From assembly GCA_965369365.1 (NCBI GenBank), contig CBDUQO010000002.1, positions 1-34,974 on the forward strand: DNA of 34,974 nt, written 5' to 3'. The notes below the pieces were generated by a model. That model saw nothing but the letters and a program-made list of their open reading frames with translations, did not search any database and was not told the DNA's origin. This DNA comes from an uncultured Methanosarcinales archaeon (lineage in GTDB: Archaea; Halobacteriota; Methanosarcinia; Methanosarcinales; Methanogasteraceae). The position numbers and the translations under genes were made by a program. This document shows positions 394-33,473 of this stretch, in pieces (the stretch's first letter is position 1; every line of letters begins with the position of its first letter).

Positions 394-1350
394 ATGCCAA
401 CGATACACAGACCACGACGAGGGTCACTTGCATTCAGTCCGAGAAAAAAAGCAAAGAAACCGGTTGCACGGATCAGATCGTGGACCAAAAACGGAACAGA
501 ACCTAAAATACAGAGTTTTGCCGGGTACAAAGTTGGGATGACCCATGTGGTGATGGTCGATGACCACCCAAAACGTTTGACATCAGGTATGGAGATATCG
601 GTGCCGGTAACGATCATCGAGACTCCGCCGATGCGCGCCATCGCAATACACGCTTATTCCCGTGATGAACATTACGGGCTTAAAATGATCTCAGAGGTGC
701 GGGAAGGGAGCGATTACAGCAGTATCGAAGGTGCTCTTGAGGAAGGTATAGTGGACGAGATCCGGATGATCGTACAGGCTATGCCAAAAAGCATCACCGG
801 AGTTCCGAAGAAGACACCTGACTATATGGAGACCATGGTTGCTGGTGGGGACGCTGTCGCACGGTTTGAACATGCAAAATCCCTTCTTGGCATGGAGTAC
901 AACATCACGGACATATTCAACGAGGGCGCTTTCATTGATGTCGTGGCGATCACCACTGGAAAGGGGACCCAGGGTCCTGTGAAGCGATGGGGTGTGCAGC
1001 TCCAGAAGGGCAAGCACAGCCGAACCGGAAAGAAGCGCCACATAGGGAACCTTGGTCCGTGGAAACCATCTTATGTCCGCAGAACTGTGCCGCTGATGGG
1101 GCAGACCGGCTATTATCAGCGTACCGAGTACAACAAACGCATCTTGAAGATCGGGGCTGATGGTGCAGAAGTAATGCCTAATGGTGGATTCATAAACTAT
1201 GGCATCATCAGGAACGGGTACGTGATGTTACAGGGGAGCGTTCCGGGACCATCGAAGCGATTGATCCGGATGAGGCACTGCATACGTGAAAAACCAGCGT
1301 GGGATGCTCCGGTGATCACGCACATCAGTACACAGTCCAAGCAGGGATGA
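394..1350 (+). CDS. rpl3: 50S ribosomal protein uL3 (archaeal L3).
   Basis: N-terminus [31 protein letters not shown] and [13 protein letters not shown] are typical of archaeal L3. Purine-rich GAGAAGAGG sits upstream of the ATG. Confidence 0.95.
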
Positions 1351-4564: not shown

Positions 4565-5299
4565 ATGCTCCAACGCATCTACGAGCGCATCTATGAATAC
4601 CGGCTGCACTCCCGGGTCATCAGACACCACATGCCTGCCGGACTGACGCTCGTGATGACCGAGAGCGATATTTCCACACCAGCCGGGATCGAAAAACTAC
4701 GATCCTTTGTTTTGTGGTGCGCAGATCTCGGTATCGAATCACTCATCATATACATCGCTGTGACGATAAACGATAGTCTGAAAGAGGATGCAACCTCGCA
4801 GATCGTTGATAGACTGGATAAAACCGATCTGATTGCAAGGATGTATGTCAGGGATGATTCAGGGGCAAGAATGATCTCTACTATAGACCACAGCAAGGAT
4901 CGAGGTGGGCACAAGGACATCGATGTGGGTATGGATATGGACGTTGATATGGCTGGGCGAGTGGATGTGGATTGCAGGGTCAAACTTGATATCTCAATAG
5001 GGTATGGGGGGAAACTTGAGCTTACCGATGCGATAAAAGATATTTTAAAGAAGGTGGAGTCTGGAGAAACTAATCTTAATGACATTAATACGGATATGAT
5101 TGAATCTCACCTTGTTTTTAAACATAAACCGGATCTGGTCATTCGTGCGGGTGGAAAGTCTCTAACCGATTTTTTGATATGGCAAACGATATACTCTGAA
5201 TTATATTTTACAGATGTGAATTTCGCTGAGATACGAAGACTGGACTTCTTACGGGTTATACGGGATTATCAGAAACGTCAGCGAAGATATGGGCGGTGA
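4565..5299 (+). CDS. Cis-prenyltransferase (UppS)-family protein lacking the N-terminal catalytic motif; possible non-catalytic NgBR/Nus1-like partner subunit.
   Basis: The C-terminal half is UppS-like: IRAGGKSLTDFLIWQTIYSELYF, ending QRRYGR (RxG). The archaeal UppS-like N-terminus IYERIYEYRL is followed by LTLVMTESD where IMDGNRR is expected. Confidence 0.72.
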   Translation: MLQRIYERIYEYRLHSRVIRHHMPAGLTLVMTESDISTPAGIEKLRSFVLWCADLGIESLIIYIAVTINDSLKEDATSQIVDRLDKTDLIARMYVRDDSGARMISTIDHSKDRGGHKDIDVGMDMDVDMAGRVDVDCRVKLDISIGYGGKLELTDAIKDILKKVESGETNLNDINTDMIESHLVFKHKPDLVIRAGGKSLTDFLIWQTIYSELYFTDVNFAEIRRLDFLRVIRDYQKRQRRYGR

Positions 5300-5376
5300 A
5301 GTAATCAGGAGACTGAACATGACGAGGATTTCTATCCTGAATCAGGCAAGTGACTGGCAGCAAGACTCGGGTGCAG

Positions 5377-6078
5377 TTACCCCTGGTGATCCGGACCATG
5401 CCAGACCAGCGGGCTTAGCAGATAACACCCAACTAGCCCTGCGAGAATCCATGCAAACCAGTCGTAAAATCCACCATAGTGTGCGAGGATTGCGAGAACA
5501 AACGCAATTGCAAGCGGTACCAGTATCTTGACTGATCTGACCTTCGGATACGGTATATTGCTAACCATTAGCACCGATAATCCCGCAAACACACCGGTCA
5601 TCACGTACTGAGAATAATAAATATAATCAATTAAATATAACAATAGCGCAGCGAATGTGCCGGCAGCGGTGATCGGAAGCCCGCGAAACTCATCGTCATC
5701 CAATATCCCGAATCTGGAGAGCCGGAGCACTCCGCAGACAAGATATGCGGCAGAGAAGACACATGCAGTCATGTGATGATCTGTGCCTGCCATTGTGTAA
5801 TAGATGAGTGCAGGGACTACCCCAAACGAGATTACGTCTGCAAACGAGTCAAGGTGCTCGCCCATAACTCCCAGTTCAACACGTCTTGCAACGGCGCCGT
5901 CCACGCCGTCTGCGAGCGCAGCAGCCAAAATCATGATTGCAGCGCTGCGCGGATCGCCGTTTAGTAGATACAAGATGGCGGTGAATCCAAACAGTACATT
6001 TAAAATCGTAATCAGGTCTGGCAAGCGAACCAGCCTCAGTATATTCAGGTCAGTCCCATCACGGATGTGTTCATTCAT
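5377..6078 (-). CDS. pssA: CDP-alcohol phosphatidyltransferase; archaetidylserine synthase-type.
   Basis: Motif DGVDGAVARRVELGVMGEHLDSFADVISFG matches D-G-x2-A-R-x8-G-x3-D-x3-D. Multi-TM protein adjacent to and overlapping psd. Confidence 0.85.
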   Translation of the reverse strand: MNEHIRDGTDLNILRLVRLPDLITILNVLFGFTAILYLLNGDPRSAAIMILAAALADGVDGAVARRVELGVMGEHLDSFADVISFGVVPALIYYTMAGTDHHMTACVFSAAYLVCGVLRLSRFGILDDDEFRGLPITAAGTFAALLLYLIDYIYYSQYVMTGVFAGLSVLMVSNIPYPKVRSVKILVPLAIAFVLAILAHYGGFYDWFAWILAGLVGCYLLSPLVWHGPDHQG

Positions 6079-27901: not shown

Positions 27902-27998
27902 TTTTTTAACACTCCCACTATTTAGGTGGTAAATCCAGTTTACCCACCACTGAGTATAGTGTTAGACACCATTGCATAAAAGATCATCCCCTTCAATA

Positions 27999-28065
27999 GG
28001 CGGTCACATTATGTGGTGTTTGGGTCATATCCTCGTCGGTGTGCGGTTGGATAAACCCAAATATG
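27999..28065 (-). promoter_or_regulatory. Conserved non-coding element, copy A, upstream of cooS.
   Basis: About 60 of 67-68 positions are identical to 33406-33473 by hand alignment, in the same orientation relative to the downstream gene. Confidence 0.6.
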
Positions 28066-28112
28066 GCATGAAATCCCTTTGAATTAATCTTGCTCTTGGG
28101 CAAATAACATTT

Positions 28113-28176
28113 AATCCGTGTCCATCTGTGAAATTTGCGGCTGATAAAAGCTTTTATCCACAGATGAACACGGATT
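28113..28176 (-). repeat. Inverted repeat with 18-nt arms (28113-28130 / 28159-28176, one mismatch) enclosing the perfect 16-nt palindrome GATAAAAGCTTTTATC (28143-28158).
   Basis: Direct reading. On the minus strand the single mismatch becomes a G-U pair. Lies between the response-regulator stop and cooS. Confidence 0.75.
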
Positions 28177-28263
28177 TCACCGATTATACCTAACAACTCA
28201 CTCGAACAGATTCATGGAATCTCATGTAACAGCAGATGGTGTGACAGCCCCCGCCAAACCTTG

Positions 28264-28974
28264 TCAGGTTCTTGTTGCAAAGTTCACAACAGCAACATGA
28301 TGATCACTATTAATATGCTTATTCAGGAGTGCTACATACTCACTCACTCCTTTTGCATCAAGTGAATCTCGAGATTTTTCTTTCAATTCTCGTTTGAACG
28401 ACTCTTTCTCTGCCATAATCAGACCAAGTTTCCTCTCTATTAATTCATTGTACAGATACTTTATACGTAGTAGAGATTTTACTTGTGTTATTAATTCTAA
28501 AGAAGTTACTGGCTTTGTAAGAAAGTTATCCACTCCGGATTCAATAGCTTTTATTTTATATTTCGTTTCACTCAGCGCAGTCACCATCACGACTGGTATA
28601 AACAGCGTCTCTGCCTTTCCTCTCAATATTCTGATGATGTCAAAACCGTTTAGATCAGGCATCACCGCGTCAAGTAAGATCAAATCGGGCATTTCACATT
28701 CGACTTTTTTAAGAGCTTCTTCTCCACTATATGCAGTCACCACTTCGTAGCCTGCCGCACTCAACTGTGCCTCGAATAACTCGACATTCATAGGTTCGTC
28801 ATCAACCACCAGTATCCTCTGTCCATTCAGTTCCATCATAGCATTCGCTTTTTCCAGCATTATCCGGGCTACCGGGTCCATCGCCATATCAGAAACTTCT
28901 GACTGGAGCATGATGTTTTCGAAGTCATCGATGGTGAAACCGTCGATGATGGGGCATTCAGGTTCTATTGTCAT
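28264..28974 (-). CDS. Response regulator: receiver domain plus a short C-terminal coiled-coil, with no recognisable output domain.
   Basis: RILVVDDEP, ILLDAVMPDLNG and LTKP receiver motifs. ATG at 28974 is preceded by GGAG. The ORF extends to 29271, but that part (MCCCTLD...) does not look protein-like. Confidence 0.78.
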   Translation of the reverse strand: MTIEPECPIIDGFTIDDFENIMLQSEVSDMAMDPVARIMLEKANAMMELNGQRILVVDDEPMNVELFEAQLSAAGYEVVTAYSGEEALKKVECEMPDLILLDAVMPDLNGFDIIRILRGKAETLFIPVVMVTALSETKYKIKAIESGVDNFLTKPVTSLELITQVKSLLRIKYLYNELIERKLGLIMAEKESFKRELKEKSRDSLDAKGVSEYVALLNKHINSDHHVAVVNFATRT

Positions 28975-29400
28975 GTTCACAATCTCCACTATTTTACCCA
29001 ACGTCTTGTGCTGATGTGCACAACAACGATCTTGCTGATCTATGTAATTATCGTCCCCTACCGTATATAAAACTATCGGTTTGGTATGGATCATGTAAAA
29101 AATATAGCAAAATATCACATCAAGGTTCATAGCCAGACCACCGGACAGTTTCCCCCAATAATCCAAAGACCGGCATAATCTCCGGATGCGTGGTATCACG
29201 TTTTCCAAGCCATTGATTGTGAAGCGCTCGATTTCTATCTGTAATGATCTGTCTAATGTACAACAACACACACGATGCGAAGGCAGAGATTAACGAAAAA
29301 AGCGAGAATATACTAAATCATATCAAGATATTATCAGATTGGAGAACAAAAACCATTCGGGATTGTATGGAATTGTCTTTTATAGGTACGCGGCAGAAGA

Positions 29401-29420
29401 CCCCGCTACTTGTAGCGGGG
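29401..29420. repeat. Perfect 20-bp palindrome CCCCGCTACTTGTAGCGGGG, copy 1.
   Basis: Identical to 29575-29594. Flanked by GCGGCA (29390-29395) and TGCCGC (29426-29431), which can extend the helix. Confidence 0.85.
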
Positions 29421-29574
29421 ATGAATGCCGCACTAAAACGTTTAAATACATCCGGGTTAAGTCTGGTTTGTCTCGCAAGGCTGAAAGTGCTGGCGAGATA
29501 CTTGATGTACGCACGGACTGTGCGGAATTTAAGCCTGTGGGGATGCGCCATTGGGCGTCCCATGAAGCAGGAAG

Positions 29575-29594
29575 CCCCGCTACTTGTAGCGGGG
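29575..29594. repeat. Perfect 20-bp palindrome CCCCGCTACTTGTAGCGGGG, copy 2.
   Basis: Identical to 29401-29420. Shares the purine-rich flanks GAAG(A)- and -A(T/G)GAA. Confidence 0.85.
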
Positions 29595-29693
29595 AGGAAG
29601 TCACATGTTTTCTCGTTCGGAAGTAGGGGGTTTCGGAAGTACTGAAATGAAAATGGTGCGTATAGTGACCGGACGTTATAGTGCATATACTAT

Positions 29694-29699
29694 AAAAAA
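29694..29699 (-). terminator. T6 run 5 nt after the aminopeptidase stop codon (archaeal oligo-T terminator).
   Basis: AAAAAA on the + strand at 29694-29699; stop codon at 29705-29707. Confidence 0.4.
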
Positions 29700-29704
29700 T
29701 AGAA

Positions 29705-33405: not shown

Positions 33406-33473
33406 GGCGGTCACATCATGTAGTGTTTTGGTCATATCCTCGTCGATGGTTCGGTTGGATAAACCCCAATATG
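33406..33473 (-). promoter_or_regulatory. Conserved non-coding element, copy B, upstream of the atwA-like gene.
   Basis: See copy A. Lies about 70 nt upstream of the ATG at 33333. Confidence 0.6.

Follow-up and report, generated by a model that had tools for sequence, protein, structure and literature searches.

What is the origin of two identical copies of a hairpin-forming 20-mer which lie in a long spacer of an archaeal genome? The window, as we call the whole stretch of DNA that was analysed, has 34,974 nucleotides and comes from an uncultured Methanosarcinales archaeon. The two copies of CCCCGCTACTTGTAGCGGGG are found between its peptidase and response regulator genes, surrounded by several other stems. 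An initial annotation made from the sequence had proposed either a structured RNA or a pair of operators. We will show that this region is very probably a gene-less, internally deleted derivative, of the PATE/MITE type, of an insertion sequence of the IS200/IS605 family which is frequently found in ANME-2 Methanosarcinales. It has the twin hairpins as its left and right ends, and the structured RNA is its residual omega-RNA scaffold. The evidence consists of the homology of the ends and of the RNA scaffold, sharp boundaries, dispersal, covariation and the absence of the element from the same spacer in relatives.

The repeats in the window

We have found CCCCGCTACTTGTAGCGGGG at 29401-29420 and 29575-29594, both on the + strand and in exact copies, at the positions given by the initial annotation. 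The chance expectation is 0.01 matches, and four or more matches were found in none of 100 shuffles. The block common to both sites extends over 33 nt with 88% identity (29393-25/29567-99). It is not a perfect palindrome, as it had been called: its 8-bp arms surround a CTTG loop which is not palindromic, and on the reverse strand 2 positions do not match. All the other stems which had been listed are present at their coordinates (Table 1). The A/T runs are present as well, although several of their positions had to be moved by 1-2 nt: TTTTATAG is found at 29378-29385, TTTTCT at 29608-29613 and AAAAA at 29348-29352. That earlier list did not include TTTAAATA, which is the best TATA-like box of archaeal type to be found on the + strand.

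The region 29340-29660 folds better than shuffled sequences on both strands, with z values of -3.9 for the + strand and -4.2 for the minus strand. We have discarded an RNA on the minus strand in spite of its similar score, because the G-U pairs and the orientation of tnpB both indicate the + strand; the G-T pair which had been used as a pointer to this strand was a correct argument. ARAGORN does not find any tRNA or tmRNA in the window.

Table 1. Position of the features of the element in the window
Feature	Position	Strand	Remarks
TTTAT, target/transposon-adjacent motif (C_L/TAM)	29379..29383	+	conserved start; just outside the left end
Left end (LE)	29384..29431	+	outer stem, 5+5 internal loop, AAGA, subterminal hairpin
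Stem GCGGCA/TGCCGC	29390-95/29426-31	+	outer stem of the left hairpin
Guide tetranucleotide AAGA	29397-29400	+	within LE
Left subterminal hairpin (first 20-mer)	29401..29420	+	presumed TnpA binding site, top strand
TTTAAATA, archaeal TATA-like box	29441..29448	+	ex-tnpB promoter of the parent element; start predicted at ~29470-29474
Stem TCTCGC/GCGAGA in degenerate tnpB remnant	29471..29498 (29471-76/29493-98)	+	would-be 5' hairpin of the TATA-box transcript
Omega-RNA (reRNA) scaffold over the last tnpB codons	29504..29604	+	homology, covariation, weak Rfam HgcC match
P1, stem CGCAC/GTGCG	29510-14/29520-24	+	
Enclosing stem CCUG/CAGG	29534-37/29568-71	+	
K-turn-like motif UGG[G] / GAAG	29538-41 / 29564-67	+	
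P2, stem GGGATGC/GCGTCCC	29540-61 (29540-46/29555-61)	+	
G at A1n of the G-A/A-G tandem	29541	+	A in 12/13 copies (alignment A2)
Guide tetranucleotide GAAG	29571-74	+	5' of the right hairpin
Right subterminal hairpin (second 20-mer)	29575..29594	+	doubles as omega-RNA helix P3
Tail AGGAAGUCAC	29595-29604	+	
TCAC, putative right cleavage site (transposon-encoded motif)	29601..29604	+	element end 29604, 10 nt 3' of the hairpin foot
Flanking DNA AUGUUUUCUCGUUCGG, would-be omega-RNA guide	29605..29620	+	analogy with TnpB omega RNAs (PMC8612924, PMC10055086)

Dispersal of the 20-mer

We have scanned the exact sequence CCCCGCTACTTGTAGCGGGG against 185,579 species-representative genomes and found it at 45 loci. 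About 33 of them lie on contigs from ANME-2/Methanosarcinales MAGs, with several loci in one MAG. The bacterial loci have just 20-24 nt in common with the window. A dispersed 20-mer is what the initial annotation itself had named as evidence against a host RNA or an operator, and this is the result of the scan.

Complete transposons are present among these loci. L039 and L040 have two copies of the 20-mer in direct orientation, 1.2-1.4 kb apart, with tnpB between them. The tnpB products at these loci contain the Pfam domains HTH_OrfB_IS605, OrfB_IS605 and Cas12f1-like_TNB; the same ends are associated with such a TnpB in L039, L040 and L030, the last of which carries an intact protein of 368 aa. 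The transposase is less regular: some elements with the 20-mer and tnpB have a Y1 tnpA, others do not. In L003 a TnpA of 124 aa (Y1_Tnp, Pfam E=1.6e-34) abuts the left hairpin and is divergent from tnpB, and truncated tnpA fragments are found in L012, L013 and L040. A tblastn search for TnpA and TnpB across the 35-kb window found neither; the match of its TnpA query in L003 was confirmed by Pfam.

Among the exact copies of the 20-mer, 14 are left ends and 11 are right ends; another 10 are hybrids, solo hairpins with a 5' flank of the left type and a 3' flank of the right type. L032 and L039 turn out to be one and the same locus (94-95% identity): L032 has a solo hairpin, whereas L039 has the full insertion sequence and is 1,190 bp longer. 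The hybrids are therefore scars of deletions between two identical hairpins.

The ends of the element

All copies were aligned on the hairpin and conservation was read over 23 left-end and 21 right-end copies. Flanks of the left type read TTTAT-AGRTACGCGGCAGAAGA-hairpin-ATGAATGCCGC, those of the right type ...GAAGCAGGAAG-hairpin-AGGAAGTCAC. On the left side there is an abrupt onset of conservation at TTTAT (-22/-23 relative to the foot of the hairpin) and the sequence further upstream is random. TTTAT is conserved in 22-23 of the 23 copies (T 22/23, T 23/23) and ends 17 nt 5' of the foot. On the right side conservation ceases at +10 (GTCAC) in 20 of the 21 copies. The left end of the window is 92-100% identical to left ends over 29379-29431, with 14 such copies in ANME-2 MAGs. 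The hairpins are subterminal, they are direct copies on the same strand with distinct flanks of left and right type, and there are no terminal inverted repeats: these are the features which characterize the ends of the IS200/IS605 family. We do not find any target-site duplication flanking the element in the window.

The family member IS608 is a useful reference. Its left cleavage and target motif TTAC is placed 19 nt 5' of the left hairpin, its right cleavage site TCAA is 10 nt 3' of the right hairpin, and 4-nt guide sequences are found immediately 5' of each hairpin foot (PMC3201880). The spacing in the window is similar, 17 nt on the left and 10 nt on the right, but the motifs are different, TTTAT and TCAC. 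The conservation of the left end and the likeness to IS608 suggest that TTTAT is the left cleavage site. AAGA could pair with TTAT in the register of AAAG with TTAC in IS608 (PMC3201880), and in this same register AAGA and GAAG may be set against TTAT and TCAC. Both hairpins would be recognised by a Y1 (HUH) TnpA on the single-stranded DNA of the top strand. The element would have arrived by TnpA-mediated peel-and-paste insertion 3' of TTTAT, and a TnpA produced from another locus of the genome may perhaps still mobilise it.

A mini-element without genes

The element in the window has a length of 221 bp (29384-29604), its top strand is the + strand and it lies behind TTTAT at 29379-83. It is formed by the left end, the TATA box which belonged to the promoter of tnpB, ~45 degenerate codons from the end of tnpB and the right end. 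Its segment 29505-29604 is 80-83% identical, over 100 nt, to the 3' end of tnpB plus the right end of at least 10 elements. A 95-aa ORF has a frame which reads ...VRTDCAEFKPVGMRHWASHEAGSPATCSGEEVT and can be aligned with the C-terminus of TnpB in L039 (BLASTP E=4e-12); the remnant of TnpB has 38 aa, and no Pfam domain is found in this ORF. The element would thus be the product of a deletion which removed nearly all of tnpB and fused the left end and the TATA box to its last codons, where tnpB overlaps the omega RNA/reRNA scaffold and the right end.

The box TTTAAATA is equivalent in position to TTAAGTAT, which is found 32 nt before the ATG of tnpB in the intact L030; its counterpart in L033 is CTTAAATA. 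The TATA-like box precedes the tnpB start codon by 31-32 nt in both L030 and L039. A promoter activity of TTTAAATA is suggested by these comparisons. If the retained box is transcribed, it would produce an omega-like RNA of ~135 nt, which could load onto a TnpB made elsewhere. The stem TCTCGC/GCGAGA is identical in L011: it is invariant and hence gives no covariation signal. Its region has a weak likeness, judged by eye only, to the tnpB codons ...RD-NAA-NIL. To judge by where it lies with respect to the right end, the DNA which follows the element would form the guide. A T4 run 4 nt into this guide (29608-11) could end the transcript early. A second match to the would-be guide was not found within the window.

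Other deletion derivatives have been detected. The same mini-element is present in L011 (ANME-2c-GOS) at positions 5169-5409, with 84.6% identity over 241 bp, in different flanks and with a decayed left hairpin. Two more derivatives, L033 (~276 bp) and L019 (~394 bp), arose by deletions of their own. As in PATEs and MITEs, both ends are kept, there is no transposase ORF and more than one copy is found at different sites (the window and L011). These two copies in two different genomes suggest that the mini-variant is mobile.

The guide-RNA scaffold

An alignment of the last 115 nt of 13 copies (A2) gives a clear consensus: P1, a CCUG/CAGG stem enclosing the variable hairpin P2, and P3, which is the right hairpin. 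In this alignment 98.2% of the cells are paired and 7 pairs have compensatory changes. The observed covariation is reached in none of 500 shuffles, and slid controls collapse. All 5 pairs of P1 have double changes (CG/GC/GU, GC/AU); in P3 two pairs are compensatory and several are G-U. Each variant folds alone into the same architecture, in spite of quite different P2 sequences. A covariation check had been proposed: CGCAC/GTGCG, GGGATGC/GCGTCCC and the second 20-mer correspond to P1, P2 and P3, and in the 13 copies they have both G-U pairs and compensatory changes. The conserved secondary structure extends from the 3' end of tnpB through the right end, as it is the case for omega RNAs. The earlier claim of a structured RNA holds for the right half of the region (~29504-29604, + strand), but not as a host RNA gene, since we are dealing with a dispersed transposon-end repeat.

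A comparison with Rfam had also been suggested. No match is found in the whole window at gathering thresholds, but a permissive scan gives a weak match to HgcC (RF00062) at 29504-29617 on the + strand, with 23.7 bits vs. a gathering score of 50 (E=0.0036). It is very good for the last hairpin and the tail GAGGAAGUCA. The copy in L008 has 25.3 bits, so that both stay below the HgcC threshold, and no match to sotRNA (RF02656/7) appears in the scan. With 23.7-25.3 bits for HgcC and none for sotRNA, we are therefore dealing with a separate, apparently undescribed omega-RNA subfamily.

The HgcC RNAs of Thermococcus kodakarensis start within IS605-type transposase genes and have the same direction; HgcC and SscA are treated as different RNAs (PMC4247193). 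According to Gomes-Filho et al., HgcC is connected with the sense-overlapping RNAs found where tnpB of the IS1341 type ends (3'), and also with the RNAs of gene-less fusions of left and right ends, the PATEs (PMC4615843). Transcription from tnpB 3' ends is known for HgcC and sotRNAs, and PATEs are transcribed too (PMC4247193, PMC4615843). Such RNAs are now understood as the guide of TnpB, called omega RNA or reRNA (PMC8612924; PMC10055086; PMC12558985), and PATEs 'often encode omega RNAs' which act with TnpB in trans (PMC10055086).

The initial annotation had also seen a resemblance to K-turns in the 5+5 loop of the left hairpin. A K-turn consists of a 3-nt bulge followed by tandem G-A/A-G pairs, between a C helix and an NC helix. 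The 5+5 loop is off this register: it would need a 2-nt bulge and 2 extra nt on the opposite side. A K-turn-like motif is found instead at the base of P2 in this family of elements, CCUG-UGGA / GAAG-CAGG, and it fits the consensus in 12 of the 13 copies. The window copy is mutated: G at 29541 is likely a decay mutation. According to the established rules of K-turns, a G at 1n should prevent the kink. Therefore neither the 5+5 loop, by its register, nor the base of P2, by G29541, conforms to a K-turn in the window.

The junction CCUG-UGGA-G / C-UAU-GAAG-CAGG of the family matches the crystallised K-turn of RAGATH-18 (5'-GUCUAUGAAGGCUGGAGAC), which carries CUAUGAAG...CUGGAG (PMC8191799). RAGATH-18 is the K-turn-containing core of the reRNAs of IS607 TnpB (PMC11061315). 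L019 and L030 have 30.5 bits with the RAGATH-18 model (RF03064), below its gathering score of 44.9 but located where such a match would be expected, and the permissive scan of the window gives no match to it.

The locus in related genomes

The response regulator starts at 28974, at the start used by its ortholog in L059, which agrees with the ~730-bp spacer calculated earlier from this start. The MAG of the window is an ANME-2c-like one. Its CODH clusters at at least 90% identity with RZN36599.1, and the gene order matches RXIK01000116.1. The ANME-2c-GOS ortholog with this gene order has a spacer of 244 bp between the peptidase and the response regulator, without the element. L058 and L053 are metagenome contigs with genes 91-94% identical; their spacer contains a different filler of 265 bp. 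About 236 bp upstream of the response regulator are common to all three genomes and are kept without the element in L059 and L058: the control region of the response regulator is therefore separate from the element.

A region of 399 bp (29298-29696) is strain-specific, so that the insertion junction and the exact TAM are deduced from the conservation of the ends only. None of the orthologous spacers offers a clean empty site: the element is absent, but they are too diverged to define the junction. The strain-specific flanks, 29211-29379 and 29605-29704, have no match among the other sequences compared. Of the 12 contigs with an identical peptidase, each one either contains the element or is interrupted there. 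Breaks in same-strain contigs are found at 29575/6, at 29614 and at 29378, where one contig ends exactly, as it is expected of a repeat.

Other interpretations

The operator pair which had been proposed would be bound by a dimeric regulator at both inverted repeats and would control the gene of either the response regulator or the peptidase. In its favour, the long spacer which precedes the response regulator contains an 8-bp inverted repeat twice, in identical form and at a distance of 174 bp. However both repeats are the same hairpin in direct orientation, and its loop is not palindromic; the same 20-mer with its flanks is found at ~33 unrelated sites adjoining tnpB or tnpA, and in L059 and L058 the ~236 bp which precede the response regulator are conserved and the element is missing. 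With a dispersed sequence and a locus which is not conserved in orthologs, the probability of this interpretation is practically nil and we consider it excluded. It is also highly improbable that the hairpins have nothing to do with IS605 ends and represent either a REP/REPIN-type structural repeat of the host or two paired terminators. The hairpins are certainly GC-rich and intergenic, and REPINs are mobilised by RAYT transposases of the Y1 type, related to TnpA (PMC4615843), but the hairpins of the window are direct and not inverted, and their left-type and right-type flanks are identical to those of elements which carry tnpB. Neither hairpin is directly followed by a T-run on either strand, which argues against terminators.

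A function of the RNA must also be considered. The element could be a live guide-RNA gene equipped with a promoter: TTTAAATA (29441-48) would direct a K-turn omega RNA of ~135 nt, to be used by the TnpB of full copies. This is rather unlikely in our opinion. We find it doubtful as well that L7Ae possibly binds the K-turn of such an RNA and that the element is protected or spread by cutting the empty site, in which TTTAT is directly followed by ATGTTTTCTCG. In a broader version the RNA would represent an undescribed archaeal class of omega RNA, which combines the terminal hairpin and tail of HgcC with the K-turn module of RAGATH-18; to this version we also assign a rather low probability. A domesticated, stand-alone guide-RNA gene, retained by the host or by the transposon family, whose omega RNA would be expressed from the old promoter and act in trans with TnpB or a TldR-like protein made elsewhere, appears quite improbable, even if the whole scaffold homologous to HgcC is kept with a TATA box ~30 nt upstream of its 5' stem, and all 4 mini-derivatives (window, L011, L019 and L033) keep at least 100 nt on the side of the right end. 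This interpretation would find precedents in the Halobacterium PATE RNAs, which are expressed and whose overexpression has a phenotype (PMC4615843), and in the PATEs with omega RNAs already mentioned (PMC10055086). Against it we have the change from A to G at the otherwise invariant K-turn adenine (29541), the T4 run 4 nt into the guide, a guide which finds no other target in the window, the lack of the element in orthologous spacers and a left hairpin which is already decaying in the L011 copy. Our interpretation is a deleted insertion sequence whose copy in the window is probably decaying, as suggested by this change in the K-turn and by the T4 run.

Comparison with known systems

The deleted insertion sequence accounts for the 730-bp 'non-coding' spacer and for three spurious ORFs, so that its value is mainly in annotation: it is an ordinary relic of a mobile element, not a new RNA gene, and it raises no new biological question. 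It also gives a warning, since CCCCGCTACTTGTAGCGGGG breaks the assemblies of ANME-2c genomes. An IS605-type family, with defined ends and the candidate TAM TTTAT, is added to the set known for anaerobic methane-oxidising archaea. This ANME-2 family brings an omega-RNA scaffold which covaries and contains a K-turn, as well as the intact 368-aa TnpB of L030; it might be of use in mining compact RNA-guided nucleases and in studies of transposon dynamics in uncultured archaea.

Elements of this kind are already well described (PMC4615843, PMC10055086), but no name seems to exist for the ANME-2 family and its omega-RNA variant. A close similarity is found with the PATEs of haloarchaea (e.g. Halobacterium VNG_R0052) and the PATE-like elements of Geobacillus stearothermophilus: these are likewise dispersed in intergenic DNA, and both the hairpin of the right end and the part for the guide RNA are retained in them (PMC4615843, PMC10055086). 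The element of the window differs from them in its host, which belongs to ANME-2 Methanosarcinales, and in the sequence of its ends; its two hairpins are 100% identical, and the former tnpB promoter, from which transcription is predicted, is retained. REP/REPIN repeats with their RAYT are similar as short, dispersed intergenic repeats which form hairpins and are related to a Y1 transposase. However REPINs are inverted doublets of REPs, while here there are two direct hairpins, with left/right asymmetry and a remnant of tnpB.

With IS608 and ISDra2 the element shares subterminal hairpins on one strand and the absence of terminal inverted repeats, as well as a 4-nt guide 5' of each hairpin foot; these two insert without target duplication (PMC3201880), and none is seen in the DNA which flanks the element in the window; its cleavage sites are a prediction made from the DNA sequence. 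The full elements with these ends (L003, L040) are unlike IS608 and ISDra2 in having tnpA divergent from tnpB. The resemblance to RAGATH-18 lies in the K-turn module CCUGUGGAG...GAAGCAGG, which closes a variable hairpin (PMC8191799; PMC11061315), but that RNA belongs to IS607, with a serine recombinase, whereas the elements described here are of the IS605 type with a Y1 TnpA, and the window copy has G in place of the key A. Finally, as in the TnpB omega RNAs, HgcC and the haloarchaeal sotRNAs (RF02656/7), the scaffold is placed at the 3' end of tnpB and extends through the right end (PMC4247193; PMC4615843; PMC8612924). In common with them it has the hairpin of the right end, with its tetraloop, as the last helix, and its tail ...GAGGAAGUCA resembles the HgcC consensus GAGGAGGUCA.

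Solo hairpins and insertion sites

We will start with the solo hairpins, of which there are ten. Each measures about 58 bp and has a 5' flank of the left-end type and a 3' flank of the right-end type. They derive from deletion between the two identical hairpins, as is shown by comparing L032 with L039, which represent one orthologous locus. Since its left and right hairpins are perfectly identical, this IS605-type family is prone to self-deletion.

All left ends share with the window (29379-29385) the sequence TTTATAG, formed by the conserved target motif and the first bases of the element. It looks like an archaeal TATA box, which is why the initial annotation placed a TATA-like box at this position. 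This likeness may bias insertions to promoters and A/T-rich spacers. The spacer between the peptidase and the response regulator is hypervariable among close relatives, with lengths of 730, about 500 and 244 bp. Its fillers are non-homologous between the window, the metagenome contigs L058 and L053, and the ANME-2c-GOS ortholog L059; the 236 bp or so immediately upstream of the response regulator (28975-29210) are strongly conserved. On the 3' side of the mini-element, a gene-less IS200/IS605-type derivative, the region with the direct repeat TTCGGAAGTA contains the stretch GAAGTAGGGGGTTTCGGAAGTAC, which loosely resembles the 3' half of the right end (TTGTAGCGGGGAGGAAGTCAC) and can pair with the 5' arm of the right hairpin. 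Either an older insertion has left a fossil right end here, or the likeness is due to chance.

In a related locus, L033, the right end of the mini-element is followed after 38 nt by a tRNA gene (63.6 bits, 785-858, minus strand) with the same orientation. An omega-type transcript of this element would run into the tRNA gene.

Two matches are found in contigs binned as bacterial. L015 (Proteobacteria) has a 43-nt right end with 97.7% identity to the ANME family, including the sequence of P2, the variable helix of the omega RNA scaffold; L001 (Verrucomicrobiota) matches the left-end region over 45 nt at 87%. Both are probably mis-binned archaeal contigs, transfer being a possible alternative origin.

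Location of the features discussed
Feature	Locus	Positions
Repeat of about 250 bp, copy 1	window	27990-28239
Same, copy 2	window	33406-33448, continuing to about 33600
Same	L011	5418-5666
Same	L031	6960-7013
Direct repeat TTCGGAAGTA, twice	window	29616-25 and 29632-41 (region 29616-29641)
Spacer stretch compared	window	29298-29696
Same	L058	310-574
Same	L053	
Same	L059	3930-4173
Solo hairpins	L009, L016, L017, L018, L022, L023, L026, L031, L032, L044	

A second dispersed repeat

Besides the IS605-type ends, a second dispersed repeat, with a unit of about 250 bp and an internal palindrome CTGTGAAATTTGCGGCTGATAAAAGCTTTTATCCACAGATGAA, is present in the window, L011 and L031. The two window copies have 43 nt in common at 91%, and the L011 copy (250 bp, 80% identity) directly adjoins the mini-element of that ANME-2c-GOS locus. 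In the window, minus-strand genes (CODH, ABC ATPase) have this repeat on their upstream side, and its sequence there gives rise to spurious extensions of the ORFs at the N terminus (DEDMTQTPHNVTA...). The unit could be a further MITE, or else a shared regulatory module.
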